From positions 11,422 through 75,421 of the forward strand of contig DASQNU010000240.1 in assembly GCA_035644815.1 (NCBI GenBank): a DNA stretch of 64,000 nucleotides, given 5' to 3'. Shown in pieces: positions 2,660 through 49,432 of this stretch. The stretch's first letter is position 1. Each line of letters begins with the position of its first letter. The notes under the pieces are model-generated. The model worked only from the letters and a program-made list of their open reading frames with translations. It was not told where the DNA came from and made no database searches. This DNA comes from Candidatus Bathyarchaeia archaeon. GTDB taxonomy: Bacteria; Bacillota; Bacilli; Brevibacillales; Brevibacillaceae. Both the position numbers and the translations under genes were made by a program.

Positions 2660-3241
2660 GTGTCGATTTTCCTTGCAATGTGCCTTTTTTCATTTTCCAT
2701 GTCGATCTCTCCAGGCCCAGTAAATATAACGATTCTTTCTTCAGGGGTCAATTATGGATTTAAGCGCACATTACCTTTCGTATCCGGTTCAACAGTCGGG
2801 TTTACATTCTTGTTGACTGCTGTGGGATTAGGGATATCCAATCTCGTTGCGCAAGCCCCCATGTTCTATGAATGGCTAAAATATCTTGGAACAATCTATA
2901 TGAGTTATATCGGATACAAAATTATGGTTTCGCGCCCTGATATCGAGCTAAAAGAGGAACAACTTCCGCGTTTTCGTCAAGGTTTTCTCATGCAGTGGCT
3001 AAATCCGAAGGCATGGATAGCATGTCTTTCTGGTGTTTCTGCTTTTGGTTTGAACACTTCTTATTCAATGCTATTTATCTTTACGAGTATTTATTTTCTC
3101 ATTTGTTATCTTTCACTTATCGCTTGGGCCATTCTGGGATCCAAATTACAATTTCTTATGAAAGTGAAGAACGGCATTAAGGTTTTTAACTTGGCAATGG
3201 GCGGTTCTTTGATTATTGTAGCAATATTTCTTTTGTTTTGA
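2660..3241 (+). CDS. LysE/RhtB family translocator
   Basis: SPGP motif, GFLMQWLNPKAW motif, hydrophobic helices, AAAGGAG RBS. Confidence 0.9.
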   Translation: MSIFLAMCLFSFSMSISPGPVNITILSSGVNYGFKRTLPFVSGSTVGFTFLLTAVGLGISNLVAQAPMFYEWLKYLGTIYMSYIGYKIMVSRPDIELKEEQLPRFRQGFLMQWLNPKAWIACLSGVSAFGLNTSYSMLFIFTSIYFLICYLSLIAWAILGSKLQFLMKVKNGIKVFNLAMGGSLIIVAIFLLF

Positions 3242-17195: not shown

Positions 17196-17262
17196 TATGA
17201 CGGACTGCGCATCCGTGGCACTTCAACACCCCCTATCCGCGTAGGTTGATTGTGTTTCACAA

Positions 17263-17460
17263 AAACAGGCAGGTCTCCTGGCTTAGGGCCTCTCTTTTCG
17301 TGCCTTCCCGGAAAGCTGTTTTCCAGTGACATATGGCGAAAAGATTGCTCATGGTTGATGAGCACCCATCACAGTGGCGGGACCGCGCCGGCTTTTCACC
17401 GGACTTCCCTATTAAGTCGAGCCGCGCTTCCCCTTGGAGAAGCACGCTCCACACCTGTTT
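17263..17460 (-). ncRNA. Cobalamin (AdoCbl) riboswitch, internal copy
   Basis: Minus strand carries AGGGAAGTCCGGTGAAAAGCCGGCGCGGTCCCGCCACTGT, GGGAAGGC and the B12 box AGCCAGGAGACCTGCC; P1 pairs AAACAGGT with GCCTGTTT. Confidence 0.95.
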
Positions 17461-17469
17461 TCTCATGTA

Positions 17470-18018
17470 TCAAATTATCGATGGCTCTATGGTCACAAGT
17501 TCCAGATAGGCTGCATTAGGAAGAATGCCTACATCCTTACCATACGCCTGTCCCAGACATTTGATGATACTGCCGTGGGTGACAAGCAAAATATCTGTCT
17601 GCGGATAAGACACCAGAAGAGATTCTACGGCTTCCGTTACCCGCTGTCGTACTGCCGATAGGGCTTCGACCTCCCACTGCCCGTCCTGGATCTCCTCAAT
17701 ATCTGCGATCCCGTAATGGTCCTGAATTTCCTGCAAGGTCAAGCCCTCCAATCTGCCAAAAGAACGTTCACGCATACAGGTGATCACTTCGATTGGCACC
17801 TGAAAGAACTCGCTAGCGATGAAAGCAGACTGCGCGGCACGAAGCAGCGGGCTGGTGAAAATTCGCACGGGTCGCAGCTCCTCTTGGTCAGCAAGTCGTC
17901 TGCATGCTTGCCTGACCTGCTCCCTGCCATCCGGGAGAAGCGGAATATCCCGCAGCCCCTGAATGCGTCTTTCCCGATTCCACGGGGTCTCGCCATGTCT
18001 CATGACAAATAGTCGCAT
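17470..18018 (-). CDS. Histidine phosphatase family protein (second CobC-like paralog)
   Basis: MRHGET..N catalytic motif, ERSFG..EG, VTHG. Confidence 0.85.
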   Translation of the reverse strand: MRLFVMRHGETPWNRERRIQGLRDIPLLPDGREQVRQACRRLADQEELRPVRIFTSPLLRAAQSAFIASEFFQVPIEVITCMRERSFGRLEGLTLQEIQDHYGIADIEEIQDGQWEVEALSAVRQRVTEAVESLLVSYPQTDILLVTHGSIIKCLGQAYGKDVGILPNAAYLELVTIEPSII

Positions 18019-23432: not shown

Positions 23433-23491
23433 TGAAAGGCACGACGGTCCTCACCTTTTCCTTTGACCCGAAGGAAAAACAGTGTTACACA

Positions 23492-23681
23492 AAATAGGCA
23501 GGTCTCCAGGCTCGAGGATCTTCGCATACCTTCTCCTTCCCGTCGCATATGAGCGACAGTGGATGGCGGAAAACCGTGAAGGACTACTCCCCTCTTACTG
23601 TGGCGGGACCGCGTTGGATTTGCACCAAACTTCCCTTTTAACCTCACCTGCGGGCATTGCTCGTCAAATGAGGACCTATTT
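23492..23681 (-). ncRNA. Cobalamin riboswitch upstream of cobO
   Basis: AGGGAAGTTTGGTGCAAATCCAACGCGGTCCCGCCACAGT, GGGAAGG and AGCCTGGAGACCTGCC; P1 pairs AAATAGGT with GCCTATTT. Confidence 0.95.
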
Positions 23682-23758
23682 GCGATGTTATGCAATTTTT
23701 GTAAATACTAAATCCATTTCATTGTAACAAGAGATGGAGAATATTCAAGTGAAAATTT

Positions 23759-42871: not shown

Positions 42872-42884
42872 CCTAAAAATTTCA

Positions 42885-42938
42885 AAAAGGAGACTCTCTT
42901 TTCCTTCGTATAGAAGTAGTGGAAGGGAGTCTCCTTTT
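42885..42938. terminator. Bidirectional terminator after xerS
   Basis: AAAAGGAGACTC/GAGTCTCCTTTT inverted repeat. Confidence 0.75.
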
Positions 42939-43102
42939 ATATCGAGTATCTATACATTGTCATGATTATCGGTTAAGTGATCGTGCCACACCAATCTTAT
43001 GTATTTTCAGTACACGACTATCAAATCCCCTCTTTTTTACTTCTATTTTCGTTTTAGAAAAAGAAAAAGACCTTAACATGGTCCTTTAACGTTGTGAATA
43101 GG

Positions 43103-43420
43103 CTATTGATGGTTATTCCCCTGTAAGGATAGCATTTGAATGATAGTTTTCATTACAGCATCTTCGTCATTAGAACGGGTAATAAAATTCGCGACATCTT
43201 TTAATTCTTGAACGGCATTTCGGACAGCAAAACTATAGGTAGCACGAGTCATAAGTTCTAAATCATTATAACCATCTCCGAATGCCATTGTTTCTTCAGG
43301 AGTAACATTCAATAATCGTTGCAAGTGTTCAACAATAGTGCCCTTATGAACATTGGCATACGCGATATCGATCCATGCGGCTTCCGAAGCAACGATATAA
43401 GCCGACTCAAAAAACGGATG
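43103..43420 (-). pseudogene. C-terminal fragment of a Cof-type HAD-IIB hydrolase
   Basis: WIDI..NVHKG..L..TMAFGDGYNDLELM..SFAVRNA..KDVANFIT.SNDEDAV; the N-terminal DxD motif is absent. Confidence 0.8.
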
Positions 43421-43516
43421 TAGTTTTCCTTTATTCCCTATTTGTGGTAAGTGATAACAAGACAATATTGTATAATATAGATTAAATTCTTAGTGGGAAG
43501 AGGGTTGAATAAATTT

Positions 43517-44746
43517 ATGCAGAAACTAGGTTTCTCAGTATCACGCCTGCACCGCTTGAGTACAGTCTTGCAAGGTTATGTCGATCGCGGTGAGATTGCA
43601 GGCGTTGTTACCCTGATACACCGGTACGGCGAAGAGGCTTACTTCGATACAATAGGCTGGCAGGACAAAGAGGCACAGACCCCCATAAAGCGGAATACTC
43701 TCTTCCGAATCATGTCAATGACAAAACCTGTAACAGCTGTTGCTGCTTTGATGCTGGTTGAAGAAGGAAAAGTTCGTCTGTTTGATCCCGTAGACACTTG
43801 GCTGCCTGAGTTATCTAACCGGATGGTACTGCGGGATCCGAACGGACCGCTCGACGAAGTCACACCCGCATCACGTTCGATTACGCTTCATGATCTGCTT
43901 ACCTCAACGCTTGGCATTGGTTGGGGGGAACATCAACTGCTGCCTGCCATTTTCAACTTGCTCCCCGCACCTCTTGCGAAAACAATGGGTGCCGATCATG
44001 CCGAACACCTCGATCCTGACGCTTGGATGAAGCGGCTGGGTGAATTACCTTTGGTATATGAACCGGGAAGCCGTTTTCTTTACCATATTGCCTACGAAAT
44101 TCTTGGCGTATTGATTGCCCGGGTTGCAGGAAAACCTTTGGGGGAATTTTTCGAAGAGCGCATCTTCCATCCTCTAGGGATGACGGACACTGGCTTTACG
44201 GTGTCGCCGGAAAAGCGAGATAGGCTGGCTGTCTCCTATGCGCCAGCACCGGATGGAAGTCTCATTGTGCTGGATCGTTCGGAGACTACCGGTTGGTCGG
44301 GAGCTCCGCTCTTCCCTTCAGGAGGAGGTGGTCTCATTTCTACCGCTGACGACTATCAGCGTTTTGGGCGAATGCTCTTGGGCAAAGGAGAACTGAATGG
44401 GGTGCGCATACTCTCCCGTAAGTCTGTGGAGGCAATGACGACGGACTTTTTAACGCCTGAACAGCATGCTCATCCTTTCTTTGATGAAACCGATTATGAT
44501 GGTTCGATGATGTGGACGAACAAAGGGTATGGTTATGGCGTGTCAGTTAGGTCACGACAAATTGGACTTGGGCCGAGCGTTGGTTCCTTCTTCTGGCCGG
44601 GTGCCCTTGGTACGACTTGGATCGCGGACCCAAAAGAGGATCTGATGGCAACTCTCATGGTTCAGCTCCGAGGCGCACAGCTTCCCCAAAATAGCAAACT
44701 CGCATATGACTTTTGGACAATGATGTATCAAGCGATAAATGAATGA
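43517..44746 (+). CDS. Serine hydrolase, beta-lactamase class C/esterase family
   Basis: SMTK (SxxK), LHDLLT, PGSRFLY, LGMTDTGF, SGGGGLIST. Confidence 0.88.
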   Translation: MQKLGFSVSRLHRLSTVLQGYVDRGEIAGVVTLIHRYGEEAYFDTIGWQDKEAQTPIKRNTLFRIMSMTKPVTAVAALMLVEEGKVRLFDPVDTWLPELSNRMVLRDPNGPLDEVTPASRSITLHDLLTSTLGIGWGEHQLLPAIFNLLPAPLAKTMGADHAEHLDPDAWMKRLGELPLVYEPGSRFLYHIAYEILGVLIARVAGKPLGEFFEERIFHPLGMTDTGFTVSPEKRDRLAVSYAPAPDGSLIVLDRSETTGWSGAPLFPSGGGGLISTADDYQRFGRMLLGKGELNGVRILSRKSVEAMTTDFLTPEQHAHPFFDETDYDGSMMWTNKGYGYGVSVRSRQIGLGPSVGSFFWPGALGTTWIADPKEDLMATLMVQLRGAQLPQNSKLAYDFWTMMYQAINE

Positions 44747-44864
44747 TATGCACAGTGGTGCGATAATGCATAGAGCAGTCCTAAGGCTTGACATTAGAAT
44801 CTTAGACTCGCCGCCGTTTTTAAGCTATGGTAGCTCGTTTAATGATGTGTGAGCCAGAATTTAG

Positions 44865-45014
44865 TCAAACCTTTTCCACACCGGGGTGGGCGGCAGCGAG
44901 CTCCACCAGCTTTGCCGCTCCCCGCCCGGACAGCACCGGCGTCCAACCTCGAATCAGCAGTTCCGCCGTCACGAACCGTGCAGCGTGCTCAAAAGTACCG
45001 AACACCGCGATAAC
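44865..45014 (-). pseudogene. GC-rich relic of a Rossmann-fold (saccharopine dehydrogenase-like) N-terminus
   Basis: VIAVFGTFEHAARFVTAELLIRGWTPVLSGRGAAKLVELAAAHPGVEKV*; in-frame stop upstream and no start codon. Confidence 0.55.
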
Positions 45015-45214
45015 CGGCTACACGCCCAATATCCATTACAGGCCATGTAAATATGATACGGAATGCCACCGTAACCGTTCCTTCCATTCATTTGATAGGC
45101 GGCCAGCTTAAAATTGGCGATCTATCAAATAAATCGAAAATAGGGTTTGGGTTAGTTATGTTACTTTTCGGGATTACACGGTTCTCAGTCCTTTCTGAAT
45201 CGTTTTCTAATTGC

Positions 45215-45853
45215 TTATATGCTTTGCTGCAACCTATTTGGCACCACTGGTTTCGTTAGCCAATGCTCATCCGTCTGAACATGATTTTTACGTACGAACT
45301 TCGCTACAGAGCTTTTGAACTCATCGTAATGAAAGGACTCCGCAACCCTAACCACGTAACCTTCTTGCTCGCCTCCAAAAACGGAATGTTGCGTATAACA
45401 GTTTTTTACCTTTTGTTCATTCCACACGCCTCTGTAAAGGACTGGGGCGACTTCTACTCCGAGTAATTTTGCCCAATCCAATGTTTCCTGCCAAGATAGA
45501 CAGTGATTTTCTTCATTCCAGATGGAGAAAATATAGAAGTAGCTAGTCAAATCCTCGTAGTAAATGGAATGCTTGGCAAACACATTTTCACCGCAAATCC
45601 TCCACCCTTCCGGAATATGAAAGGAAATCATTCCATGCAGCATTTTCACCCAATGGCGGGATTCGTGATCTTTGCTATCAAGTGACCTTGCGTGGATGGA
45701 GTCTCGATACATCGTCGTGTTTTCACCATCTAGCTTTTCTGTTACAACCACTTCGCGCCCTTCAAAATGACTGACCGATTTTAGAATTTTATCATCATCC
45801 GTTTTACTTCTCGACCATGGTAGGTGAAAAGTTCTTGGATACTTTGTCCTCAT
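45215..45853 (-). CDS. ATP-dependent RNA ligase family protein (minimal nucleotidyltransferase domain)
   Basis: KYPRT.HLPWS, motif I TEKLDGEN, ARS, ICGEN, FYIFSI, EGYVVR, KFVR. Confidence 0.88.
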   Translation of the reverse strand: MRTKYPRTFHLPWSRSKTDDDKILKSVSHFEGREVVVTEKLDGENTTMYRDSIHARSLDSKDHESRHWVKMLHGMISFHIPEGWRICGENVFAKHSIYYEDLTSYFYIFSIWNEENHCLSWQETLDWAKLLGVEVAPVLYRGVWNEQKVKNCYTQHSVFGGEQEGYVVRVAESFHYDEFKSSVAKFVRKNHVQTDEHWLTKPVVPNRLQQSI

Positions 45854-45863
45854 ACGCTTCACC

Positions 45864-46823
45864 TCATTTCGCATACGCATCTGCTTCTCTAAAGAAGTAC
45901 AGCTTCCAGAGATATTCATCTCCTAGCAAGTGATAAATGTCAGAAATATCTTGCTGTGTTCCATAGTTCATCTTCATATGCATTTGGATCAAATGAACGG
46001 CCTTGAAAATAAACTCTTCTTCAAATTGAAGTTCCTTTAAAAAATGGCAAGCAATTTGTGCAGATACGTATTCGTGTCCATAATACGAGTAATGACCTTT
46101 GGCCGGTTTGTAGGTCTTGCAAAACGGTTTCCCCGTATCATGAAAAAGGGCTACAACCTGCATTAACAACTTATCCTCTTCACTATATAACGCATTGACG
46201 TAATCGAGTACATGATAGGTATGCTTGCAAAGCGTGTGTTGATGGTGAGGATTTTCTTGATGAAAATCTACCATGTCATGAAAAAAAGAGAGTTTGCTCA
46301 AACCATGAAACAATTCTTCATAAGTGGGTTCACCTTGAAGGAGGTCGACAAATGTCTTTTTCGTAATCGCATAAGGCATTTCCTCATGAAGAATGTAAAC
46401 ATGATCGAATCCTTCGTTGAGGATTGGGAAATGAAAATTCTTTCTCATTTTCTCCAAGATGAACCCTGGTACTTTCCTCTTTCTGGATTGGTTTCTTTCC
46501 AAGCAAATGGAATAAGGCACGTTTAGATAGTAGCAATCCTTCTGCACGTTTTTAAATTTGGAGAGTACGTTCATCCGTTTCTCACGATCAAGGTTCGTGG
46601 CATCCAAGATTACATGATTTCCTTTTGCCAGCTCATTTTCGATGCTCGAATATACTTCATAAAAAACTTGAGATGTCTTCTTTTGTTTCCCTTCATCTCC
46701 AAAAAGGGTCTGTCTGATTTCGTCCGTAGAAACAATGGAAGCACGTTCTTTCTTCGCAATTTCTTTGGCCCATTTACTTTTGCCGCTTCCGGGAATTCCA
46801 GCCATCAGTATTAGTTTTTGCAT
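45864..46823 (-). CDS. Polynucleotide kinase (P-loop) fused to a C-terminal HD phosphoesterase
   Basis: GIPGSGKS, STDEIR, DATN, RNQSR lid; HHQHTL..H and LFHDTGK. Confidence 0.85.
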   Translation of the reverse strand: MQKLILMAGIPGSGKSKWAKEIAKKERASIVSTDEIRQTLFGDEGKQKKTSQVFYEVYSSIENELAKGNHVILDATNLDREKRMNVLSKFKNVQKDCYYLNVPYSICLERNQSRKRKVPGFILEKMRKNFHFPILNEGFDHVYILHEEMPYAITKKTFVDLLQGEPTYEELFHGLSKLSFFHDMVDFHQENPHHQHTLCKHTYHVLDYVNALYSEEDKLLMQVVALFHDTGKPFCKTYKPAKGHYSYYGHEYVSAQIACHFLKELQFEEEFIFKAVHLIQMHMKMNYGTQQDISDIYHLLGDEYLWKLYFFREADAYAK

Positions 46824-46884
46824 GTGTTCTCACCTCCTCACCTTGATGAAATTGTTGGGATCGTTTCATTATGTGGGTGACTCC

Positions 46885-46929
46885 TTACATAATTCCCAAT
46901 ATTATCTATGTAATCTGTATTCCTTTCAA
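46885..46929 (-). promoter_or_regulatory. SigmaA promoter of the pnk-HD/rnl pair with an overlapping palindrome
   Basis: TTGAAA-17-GATAAT (46929-46901); TTACATA-N15-TATGTAA (46885-46913). Confidence 0.6.
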
Positions 46930-46981
46930 GCCCCTTTTGACTCAACTAAGGCTTCATCATTTGCCTTTGTGAATGAACAAG

Positions 46982-47012
46982 AAAAAAGGAGCCTTATCGA
47001 ATAAGGCTCCCT
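46982..47012 (-). terminator. Terminator after the small hypothetical gene
   Basis: GGAGCCTTAT/ATAAGGCTCC stem with U run. Confidence 0.75.
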
Positions 47013-47030
47013 TGCAACCGAACACAATCA

Positions 47031-47219
47031 TCAATCTTTCCGTTTCAGATTCACAGTAAGACGATCCGAGCTATTTTCATCGTTATCAAACATGACGAAA
47101 TCATGCACCACAATGCCCTCTACCGTTTGAATCGCCTGAGACATTTTATTCGTTAATTCTTGCATATCGACCTTGTCATTTACATCTACATCTAACACTA
47201 ACACCATTTTTTTCTTCAT
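47031..47219 (-). CDS. Small hypothetical protein (62 aa)
   Basis: GGAGG RBS, MKKKMVLVLDVDVNDKVDMQELTNKMSQAIQ, own terminator. Confidence 0.6.
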   Translation of the reverse strand: MKKKMVLVLDVDVNDKVDMQELTNKMSQAIQTVEGIVVHDFVMFDNDENSSDRLTVNLKRKD

Positions 47220-47501
47220 GCCAAAAAGCCTCCAGGATTCATTAATTAGTATCGTGCTATTCATACAGTTACCTTAAATCTCATTCCTTAATGAAGTCAC
47301 CTAGCATTTTATAAAAAATTGGATTCCCTGGGAAGCAAAAATTTAGAACGAGTAACTATATTGACAATGAGACGCGTACCTATGCTTTTATTGTAAAAAA
47401 GGCTATGTTACTTTTGAATGTTGATTTTCAGTCAAAAATATACCCGTCCTGTAATGGCGGTTTATAAAGCCATCGTAACCCGTTTGTGCAATAAGAATAG
47501 C

Positions 47502-48284
47502 CTAGTTAAGACAAGTTTCTATACAATTGTTCATATATGTAACGAATGCATTCACCTCTGAATCTAGTCCTTCCCAACTTTCATTACTTTCACCTCGATA
47601 GGCTTTTTTTGCTATATCTAGTAAAGTTGCTTGCTCTTTGGGCAAAAGAGGTATAGCCCATTCTGCAGCCATATCTTTTGGAGAAATGTCACCGGTAGTT
47701 ACTGTTTGCCACATTCGAGCCAGGGTTAAGATTACATTACGCTCATCACCTTTGATACCCTCAATCAACTCTGGCAATGAATCCTTAATTGCTCTTCGAA
47801 TATCTGTCATTGGCACGGGGGCAAGTGTATTTGTAGCATCAGGACCAAATAGAGAAATACTATTCTTTCTTACTTGTGCTAAAACAATAGCCAAATCAGG
47901 ATCATAGCTTGGTTTTTGAATTTCTCCATTCTCAAACTCGTTCCTGAGCCACTCGCCATAGATAAATTCTTTTTTGGGGGGATAACGCCAGGGTACAACA
48001 TCGCTTTGGTTGATAACTGTGAGTTCAAGTGGTCTCAAAGAATTTGTATTTCCTATCTTTCCAGATATATGCATTAATTTGTTAGTTAGTTTTTTTCGAG
48101 TTACTTCAGGTAAACTTTGATTCACTAGCATTAGGACATCAACATCACTATTAATGCGTAAACCACCATTTACTGCAGAACCAAACAAATATACACCAAC
48201 TATCATGCTTCCAAACAAATCCTCTACAATTTTTAATGCTTCTATAGCTAGCTTCGGTATTTTTTCATTTCTCAAGTCACTCAT
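47502..48284 (-). CDS. ant(9): Spectinomycin adenylyltransferase ANT(9)
   Basis: GSAVNGGLRINSDVDV, RPLELT, WRYPPKKEFIYGEWLR, GDERNVILTLARMW; closely resembles Tn554 Spc by recall. Confidence 0.9.
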   Translation of the reverse strand: MSDLRNEKIPKLAIEALKIVEDLFGSMIVGVYLFGSAVNGGLRINSDVDVLMLVNQSLPEVTRKKLTNKLMHISGKIGNTNSLRPLELTVINQSDVVPWRYPPKKEFIYGEWLRNEFENGEIQKPSYDPDLAIVLAQVRKNSISLFGPDATNTLAPVPMTDIRRAIKDSLPELIEGIKGDERNVILTLARMWQTVTTGDISPKDMAAEWAIPLLPKEQATLLDIAKKAYRGESNESWEGLDSEVNAFVTYMNNCIETCLN

Positions 48285-48509
48285 AAATTCAAAACTCCTC
48301 TAGACTATGTTCAATTCGAGTACGTTATTTTGATTTTGTTAGTATTAGATGAAATGACTATTAATAGGAACATAAGACAAAGAAGGATACAAATCAACTA
48401 TTATGCCAGTTAGTTCAACAGCAAGCCTCCGTCGAGACTGGTATTCGTATCCTTCACAGAAAACAAGCATGAAGACACCAACATGTTTTTCTTATTCGAT
48501 GCCGTGTTC

Positions 48510-48629
48510 TCATATCACTCGGGTAGGGGCTACTGCACCTTTGGTTTCCGACTGCAAGAAGAGGATAAGCTGCTGCTTATCCCGATTGTCCAAACCCTTA
48601 GCAAGTTCAATCAGTTCTCTCAAATCCAA
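48510..48629 (-). pseudogene. Possible N-terminal transposase remnant
   Basis: MDLRELIELAKGLDNRDKQQLILFLQSETKGAVAPTRVI* begins about 90 bp inside the IR, then stops accumulate; family assignment is inferred from position and recall. Confidence 0.45.
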
Positions 48630-48718
48630 AGGGCTTCAACTCCAACAAATAATTACCATTATTAAAGAACCAAATGTTCGTTAATTTCAAATATCAACAT
48701 TGAAGTTTAACATAGCCT

Positions 48719-48766
48719 AAAAAAAAGTCGTACCCACTTAGAATTTGAATTGGGTACAACGACTTC
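48719..48766 (-). terminator. Terminator of the organosulfur operon
   Basis: GTCGT(..)ACCCA/TGGGTACGAC stem with an A run. Confidence 0.7.
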
Positions 48767-48886
48767 TTCTCGCACATAAAAATCGGGTAATGAACATCCC
48801 TACTATCTCAATTTAATGGCTTGAAGGCAGGTGTGGATTAGGCCGATAGCAAGACCATTCCATTGATCGAATCATTCGTAAATGCT

Positions 48887-49432
48887 TTATGGCTCCAAAT
48901 AGCCGGATGTTGTATCTAACTGTAACCAATAGCTTTTTACATTCGTTTCTCCATTAAAAAAGTCTTTTTCCTGCGCTCGCGTAAACCCCAAACGCTCATA
49001 CAATTTCACGGCTGCAACCATCATGTCAGTGGTGTGGAGATGCACGGTGGCTGCGTCTTTTTCCCTCAAGCGTTTGACACATTCCCGAATCAACCGCTCT
49101 GCAATCCCATTTCCTCTTGCTTTGGGAGATACAGCCAAATATCGGATGATCGGCGTATGGATATTCAGCTCTGGCCGGTTATAAGCCACATCCGATGAAT
49201 CGAACAGTTGTACACTGCCAACAATTTCTTGTCGCCAGCAAGCTACTAGAAACGCCATGGCATGACTTCCTTCGGCTGATTCAAGAATCTCTTGCTTGTA
49301 TTGCTTCCATTTTTCAGCGCTCAGATGCTGTTCATACTGCTCGTATGATTCGATCAAGTGTTTTCTGATTTGCTCTCGGTCCTGTGTCCACGCATCGCGG
49401 ATGGTAATATCGTTTATGTAGAGTACACGCAT
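48887..49432 (-). CDS. GNAT family N-acetyltransferase
   Basis: IRYLAVSPKARGNGIA acetyl-CoA motif, AVKLYERLGF. Confidence 0.9.
   Translation of the reverse strand: MRVLYINDITIRDAWTQDREQIRKHLIESYEQYEQHLSAEKWKQYKQEILESAEGSHAMAFLVACWRQEIVGSVQLFDSSDVAYNRPELNIHTPIIRYLAVSPKARGNGIAERLIRECVKRLREKDAATVHLHTTDMMVAAVKLYERLGFTRAQEKDFFNGETNVKSYWLQLDTTSGYLEP

Follow-up and report, generated by a model that had tools for sequence, protein, structure and literature searches.

We observed that positions 47401-48717 of the window (the whole 64,000-nucleotide stretch of DNA analysed here) are very probably a decayed transporter IS (tIS) of the IS1595 family, from an ISBwe1-like clade with GGCTnTG ends. The unit holds a single intact ORF, the aminoglycoside nucleotidyltransferase gene ant(9), together with stop-containing remnants of a transposase at 48406-48629. 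We infer the following order of events. An ancestor carrying ant(9) in its passenger slot would have inserted by DDE transposition into a Brevibacillaceae chromosome, at the distal end of an operon terminator's T-tract, with duplication of TAAAAAA(A). An internal deletion of about 820 bp would later have removed transposase residues about 41-314, and the product would be a relic resembling a mobile insertion cassette, with both ends and the ANT(9) gene intact and no transposase. Cargo-carrying IS1595 elements are already known, and this is a further example. In this environmental Brevibacillaceae genome, the vehicle of an aminoglycoside-resistance-type gene is an element of the IS1595 family.

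Limits of the element and the target duplication

Direct reading and a repeat search both delimited a unit of 1317 bp with 28-bp imperfect terminal inverted repeats (23/28 identical, or 24/29 if the flanking A/T pair is included) and TAAAAAA at both sides, exactly as the original prediction, made from the sequence alone, had described. The terminal pair was the longest inverted pair of the region in the repeat search (29 nt, 83%), the right end being the imperfect complement of the left (Table 1). Across the borders, the order is TTATTG TAAAAAA, GGCTATGTTACTTTTGAATGTTGATTTTC ... GAAATATCAACATTGAAGTTTAACATAGCC, then TAAAAAAAA GTCGTACCC. The TAAAAAA copies directly adjoin the two element ends; the left flank consists of T and six A, and the right flank of T and eight A. 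Seven bases match exactly in the direct repeat, which would be the 8-mer TAAAAAAA if the left homopolymer lost one A; relatives have exact 8-bp duplications.

The strongest statistical support for the element came from its ends. A profile HMM was built from the 3' ends of 14 related elements, the window copy being left out, and it matched the window at 47402-47488 (E 1.6e-11) and at 48681-48718 (E 5.1e-7), which is more than chance. The element has terminal inverted repeats typical of its family and clade (GGCnnTG...), and both ends keep the clade-conserved terminal blocks (GGCTATGTTA and AATGTTGAT). The conserved subterminal backbone next to the IRR holds a weak terminator-like hairpin (CCGCC...GGACGG, then a T-run) and the boundary motif AACGGGTTACGATGGC.

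Table 1. Coordinates of the element, its parts and its insertion site in the window
Feature	Position	Strand	Basis
Left target-site duplication, TAAAAAA	47394-47400	.	Identical to 48718-48724; touches the element end
IRR, transposase-distal terminal inverted repeat (GGCTATGTTA...AATGTTGATTTT); left end, GGCTATGTTACTTTTGAATGTTGATTTT	47401-47428	-	Inverted pair; end profile; also found in relatives L013-L017, L020 and L068
Conserved subterminal 3' backbone	47429-47488	-	3'-end alignment of 7, then 14 elements; fold
ant(9), intact 260-aa aminoglycoside 9-nucleotidyltransferase	47502-48284	-	NF012212; Pfam
Spacer from transposase stop to ant(9), with RBS GAGGAG	48285-48405	-	Alignment to other ant(9) loci
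Transposase 3'-end remnant (aa 315-341 and stop-codon region)	48406-48515	-	tblastn with G050 transposase (20/27 identical, E 5e-10)
Transposase 5'-end remnant (aa 1 to about 40)	48516-48629	-	tblastn with G050 transposase (E 1e-10)
Weakened transposase promoter, TTGAAA-N18-TTTAAT	48661-48690	-	Alignment of 9 IRL regions
IRL, transposase-side terminal inverted repeat	48690-48717	-	Inverted pair; end profile
Right target-site duplication, TAAAAAA	48718-48724	.	Sequence; A-run extends to 48726
Operon terminator hairpin	48727-48760	-	Inverted repeat pair; RNA fold; U-tract 48726-48719

Transposase remnants

A short ORF relic riddled with stops had been noticed beside ant(9), and it turned out to be what is left of a transposase gene after the loss of about 820 bp from its interior. 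The remnants correspond to residues 1-40 and 315-341 of a 348-aa IS1595-family transposase that is intact in a related genome (G050). The tblastn match of residues 315-341 covers window positions 48514-48434, and the DNA of this 3' remnant is 76-85% identical to that of relatives L020, L014 and L013. Residues about 41-314, which comprise the zinc finger and all of the DDNK catalytic region, are absent, with the deletion junction lying between 48514 and 48538 relative to L014. The residues C53, C56, C83, C86, D162, D242, N279 and K286, invariant in ten intact members of the clade, all fall within the deleted part. The window element encodes no DDE-type (DDNK) zinc-finger transposase, and the remnants contain stops. 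Judged from its sequence, it is a derivative of an IS1595 family member and not a functional member.

The promoter region has also changed. Relatives have a conserved TTGAAA-N17-TATAAT at the place where the window carries its weakened form, which a consensus promoter scan did not call.

Related elements and the passenger slot

When 40 related genomes were searched at the DNA level for pieces of the window element, both ends and the segment 48412-48515 recurred in several genomes belonging to its own family and class. The intact members of the clade share a layout of IRL, promoter, 348-aa transposase, one passenger gene, a short conserved motif, a terminator-like hairpin and IRR. The transposase has an N-terminal CxxC...CxxC zinc finger followed by the DDNK catalytic core. 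In all complete relatives, which are 1.5-2.2 kb long, the passenger occupies the same slot and is oriented as the transposase, and the passengers are unrelated genes (Table 2).

Table 2. Passengers and exact 8-bp AT-rich target duplications of clade members
Element	Passenger	Duplication
Window element	ANT(9)
G050	GNAT	AAATAAAT
G036	alpha/beta-hydrolase	TTTTCAAA
G024	Zn-dependent quinone oxidoreductase
G008	ICMT-type methyltransferase
G065	VOC/glyoxalase
Metagenome contig OEPS010010466.1 (L068)	RibD_C	AAAATTAA
Pontibacillus plasmid (insertion splits a glutamine synthetase gene)	DUF6176	ATTCGAAA
G187		AAAAATAA
G322		TTTAAATA
More distant members	Small proteins without family match

The G050 element (1796 bp, with the same ends) carries the uninterrupted 348-aa transposase, which scored 205.6 bits against the IS1595 family transposase model NF033547 (cut-off 75) and contains the IS1/IS1595 zinc-binding domain (NF050000). 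This cognate transposase upholds the assignment of the window element as IS1595-like, and the remnants and the end profile agree with it. The Pfam model DDE_Tnp_IS1595 (PF12762) matched the transposase copies of G036 and G024; the G036 element has 2.24 kb between the same ends, with a frameshifted IS1595-type transposase and the hydrolase gene. The nearest named IS that we found was ISBwe1 of Bacillus mycoides pBWB401, with only about 57% protein identity to the cognate transposase, so that a member of this clade would be a new IS name.

One relative also lacks a transposase. The metagenome element L068 (OEPS010010466.1, 1009-1866) is an 858-bp transposase-free cassette holding one RibD_C (dihydrofolate-reductase-like) gene between ends that are 81-84% identical to those of the window element. 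It shows that transposase-less derivatives form repeatedly, not that such derivatives move.

On an Enterococcus faecalis plasmid (L069; LR961983.1, 1-1700), an IS1595-family transposase 57% identical to that of G050 has the trimethoprim-resistance gene dfrD directly behind it. Next come a motif GGGTGCTTTAGTTGAATAA and a hairpin resembling those at the clade's 3' slot boundary, and there is no IRR behind the hairpin. We take an IR-like end at 3071 to open another IS1595-type element, lying in inverted orientation.

The differing passengers sit in backbones that are 76-85% identical in DNA, and elements so alike with wholly different single passengers make a data set on cargo acquisition by transporter IS. 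It is conceivable, and in our estimate unlikely, that the ISBwe1-like clade serves as a single-gene cassette platform, a fixed slot being reloaded by a dedicated capture mechanism, its cargo often a gene for an enzyme that modifies small molecules or is of resistance type. The limits of such a slot would, as an equally doubtful proposal, run from the transposase stop to a conserved AACGGGTGCGTTAGTTTAATAA-like boundary motif, after which come the hairpin and the IRR. The passengers that point to this reading are ANT(9), GNAT, VOC/glyoxalase, RibD_C, alpha/beta-hydrolase and quinone reductase, together with the dfrD behind the related E. faecalis transposase. If the platform exists, it might bring ant(9)-type genes from the chromosomes of soil Bacillales into the mobile pool.

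A hexamer resembling AACGGG was seen at both borders of the passenger slot, at 47479-47484 and 48406-48411 of the window and at the same positions in L020, L014 and L017. The repeat could be chance: it occurs in four elements with different passengers against a chance expectation of about 0.1, and their backbones are not independent. The wider clade has the longer conserved AACGGGTGCGTTAGTTTAATAA-like motif at the 3' border, before the hairpin.

The ant(9) passenger

The reading of ant(9) as the sole intact gene and as a passenger was borne out by its product and by its position in the slot that sister elements use. The protein scored 383.9 bits against NF012212 (ANT_9; NCBIfam cut-off 340), covering model positions 1-249 of 249, and it contains the Pfam domains NTP_transf_2 and AadA_C. 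Its GS...DVD nucleotidyltransferase motif aligned to solved AadA/ANT structures. If expressed, the gene would adenylylate spectinomycin at the 9-OH; its expression and a resistance phenotype are presumed. A consensus scan of 48285-48405 called no sigma-70-like promoter for ant(9).

The score against the ANT(9)-Ic equivalog was 247 bits, below its cut-off of 505. The gene is about 83% identical in nucleotides to ant(9)-Ia of Tn554, and the proteins are 78-80% identical. The closest proteins (78-81% identical) were those of Pseudogracilibacillus and the ANT(9)-Ia types of Pediococcus, S. aureus and E. faecium. By these scores and identities, the window ANT(9) is classed as a distinct variant, neither of the Ia nor of the Ic allele. 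A maximum-likelihood tree of 63 sequences grouped it, with moderate support (ultrafast bootstrap 81, SH-aLRT 87), as the sister of the two clinical proteins from S. aureus and E. faecium, within a well-supported clade of 11 (100/97). A sister relationship to clinical ANT(9)-Ia is weakly supported, and our trees put the window protein among the closest relatives of that clade.

The predicted relationship to the spc gene of Tn554 stood, at 78-81% identity to ANT(9)-Ia; the further suggestion of an environmental reservoir proved generic, as hundreds of Bacillales have ANT(9) genes at 70-80% identity, and the regions flanking spc in Tn554 are without the IS backbone. Because a short stretch behind spc (GGTGCTT...) looked similar, the profile was run against these spc flanks. 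The best hit had E 0.28 and lay on the wrong strand, and descent of Tn554 spc from such an element was rejected.

We also compared the surroundings of the gene with those of other ant(9) loci. The likeness was confined to 47478-48341, that is, the gene with about 25 nt downstream and 30-57 nt upstream, the downstream similarity ending at 47478-47483. A similarity limited to the gene and some 25-60 nt is as expected of a captured gene, and the ant(9)-like region fits inside the passenger slot. Neither these ends nor an IS1595 transposase occurred at the 12 genomic and 3 metagenomic loci with the closest ant(9) relatives. No other genome among the sequences examined showed ant(9) inside such an IS. 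Identical ANT(9) proteins turned up in two assemblies only, on a JGI contig and on a Logan contig, and the genes around ant(9) are the same on both.

Insertion site and neighbourhood

The right copy of the duplication had been predicted to be the poly-U tract of an operon terminator, and folding confirmed this. The hairpin (10 pairs, dG -20.7 kcal/mol, z -2.64) lies behind the GNAT gene at 48887-49432, the last gene of a minus-strand operon, and the duplication copy is the minus-strand U-tract that follows it. The hairpin is bulged; a simple consensus terminator scan missed it, and it was recognised by RNA folding. The insertion is at the distal end of the T-tract, and the hairpin with all eight U is kept upstream of it. 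The operon encodes a MetQ-type lipoprotein, a permease, an ATPase, an M20 peptidase, a luciferase-type monooxygenase and the GNAT protein.

An empty site with a single TAAAAAA, which had been put forward as a check on the insertion, was found neither in the same-genus genome G001 nor, as joined flanks, among metagenome contigs scanned for the exact pattern. In G001, window 42873-48913 corresponds to 120 nt that contain a single bidirectional terminator. Since this whole 6-kb stretch is absent there, G001 is uninformative on the site before insertion, and the ant(9) element is the right-hand tip of a variable stretch of about 6 kb. A second match in G001 is the body of a 77-aa ORF only. As no empty site was found, the claim of insertion rests on the duplication and the family anatomy.

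The variable stretch contains genes for a beta-lactamase-fold protein (43493-44746), an RNA ligase (45215-45919) and a Pnk-like kinase/HD protein (45864-46823), the 77-aa ORF and the ant(9) element. It adjoins a conserved tyrosine-recombinase gene, and its GC content falls to 38-40% from about 45050 onward. Elsewhere in the window there are two minus-strand cobalamin riboswitches, at 17251-17473 and 23480-23694 (Rfam RF00174, 97.9 and 109.9 bits), unrelated to the ant(9) element.

Copy number, mobility and alternative explanations

The original prediction was of a cassette that could be moved in trans. The part that stood is that IS ends of the clade type, intact, surround a cargo gene in the place of a functional transposase, as in a mobile insertion cassette. 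Movement in trans was not supported: there is a single copy, in one genomic context, and no second copy or stray end, full or partial, was present in the assembly, contig ends included. An intact cognate transposase elsewhere in the genome had been suggested as a check, and none was found; apart from the remnants, neither the Pfam model nor tblastn with the G050 transposase detected an IS1595 transposase in the assembly. Of the two other species of the genus, G001 gave no match and G002 has a 47-48%-identical IS1595 element with different ends, the only one found in the genus. This G002 element (L024; G002:C26, 1103-2753) is apparently intact (about 1.65 kb, with a 341-aa ORF and 30-nt IRs containing GGATCTTTTC). 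These observations weigh against a still active non-autonomous element moved by a resident transposase that the draft assembly missed, which we consider improbable even though the source is a MAG in 303 contigs (95.7% complete), IS copies often fail to assemble, the clade-conserved blocks are kept at both ends and a transposase-less relative with a perfect duplication (L068) exists. Because these terminal blocks are intact, movement by a cognate transposase supplied in trans is plausible as a possibility. This copy, decayed and single, gives no sign of current mobility, and its practical weight for resistance surveillance is small.

We also weighed whether ant(9) is simply an intrinsic chromosomal gene, with the repeats and A-runs being coincidental or coming from an IS that landed alongside. 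ANT(9) genes are common on Bacillales chromosomes (516 proteins at E<=1e-60), and A/T-rich flanks make short direct repeats easy to obtain by chance. However, ant(9) is enclosed by the element: the transposase remnants separate it from one end, and the other end is found on its far side. It occupies the slot that sister elements use for passengers, no ant(9) is found at this locus in same-genus genomes, and the GC content of the element (37%) is 11 points under that of the genome (48.4%). The tblastn matches of the remnants, the slot alignment and the end profile all contradict an intrinsic gene, and we regard this explanation as having almost no chance of being correct. A decayed transporter IS with ant(9) as its passenger is the reading that we carry forward.

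Comparison with known systems

The GGCnnTG ends and the DDNK spacing (N279-x6-K286) agree with what we take to be the features of the ISPna2 subgroup. Like tIS of the ISPna2 type, the window element has GGCnnTG ends and a passenger downstream of the transposase inside the IRs; the zinc-finger and DDNK transposase is found in its intact relatives. The AT-rich duplication of such tIS is about 8 bp, and that of the window element is an exact 7 bp, or 8 bp if one A was lost. Unlike an intact tIS, the window copy is without the transposase core. In PMC12888890 and PMC5704250, the definition of such passenger-carrying IS1595 elements as transporter IS is credited to Siguier, Gagnevin and Chandler (2009, Res Microbiol 160:232).

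Two described elements come close to it in cargo. According to PMC5704250, tISCpe8 of Clostridium perfringens, with lnu(P), and MTnSag1 of Streptococcus agalactiae, with lnu(C), are IS1595-family elements with IRs of about 25 bp, 8-bp direct repeats and a nucleotidyltransferase resistance gene (Lyras 2009; Achard and Leclercq 2007); they encode their own transposase and are mobilisable by conjugation. The window element resembles them as an IS1595-type DDE element with a single antibiotic nucleotidyltransferase passenger, and differs in that its transposase is deleted and its cargo is an aminoglycoside ANT(9) and not a lincosamide Lnu. IS1595-lnu(C) has been described as widespread (bioRxiv 10.64898/2026.03.26.714560). 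Our literature search yielded no paper in which an IS1595 element was connected with ant(9) or with resistance to spectinomycin.

In mobile insertion cassettes (MICs), such as the IS231-derived MIC231 of Bacillus cereus, IS ends flank a gene other than a transposase, and movement in trans is presumed. The window element likewise has IS ends around a non-transposase gene and no transposase. Unlike a clean MIC, it keeps a transposase remnant, which makes it a recent deletion derivative and not a clean cassette. The clean MIC of the same IS clade is the 858-bp RibD_C cassette of OEPS010010466.1, flanked by AAAATTAA.

The passenger itself belongs to the same enzyme family as ANT(9)-Ia (spc) of Tn554, at the identities given above. 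The vehicles differ: spc is carried by a transposon of the site-specific recombinase type, and the window ant(9) by a derivative of an IS1595-type DDE element.
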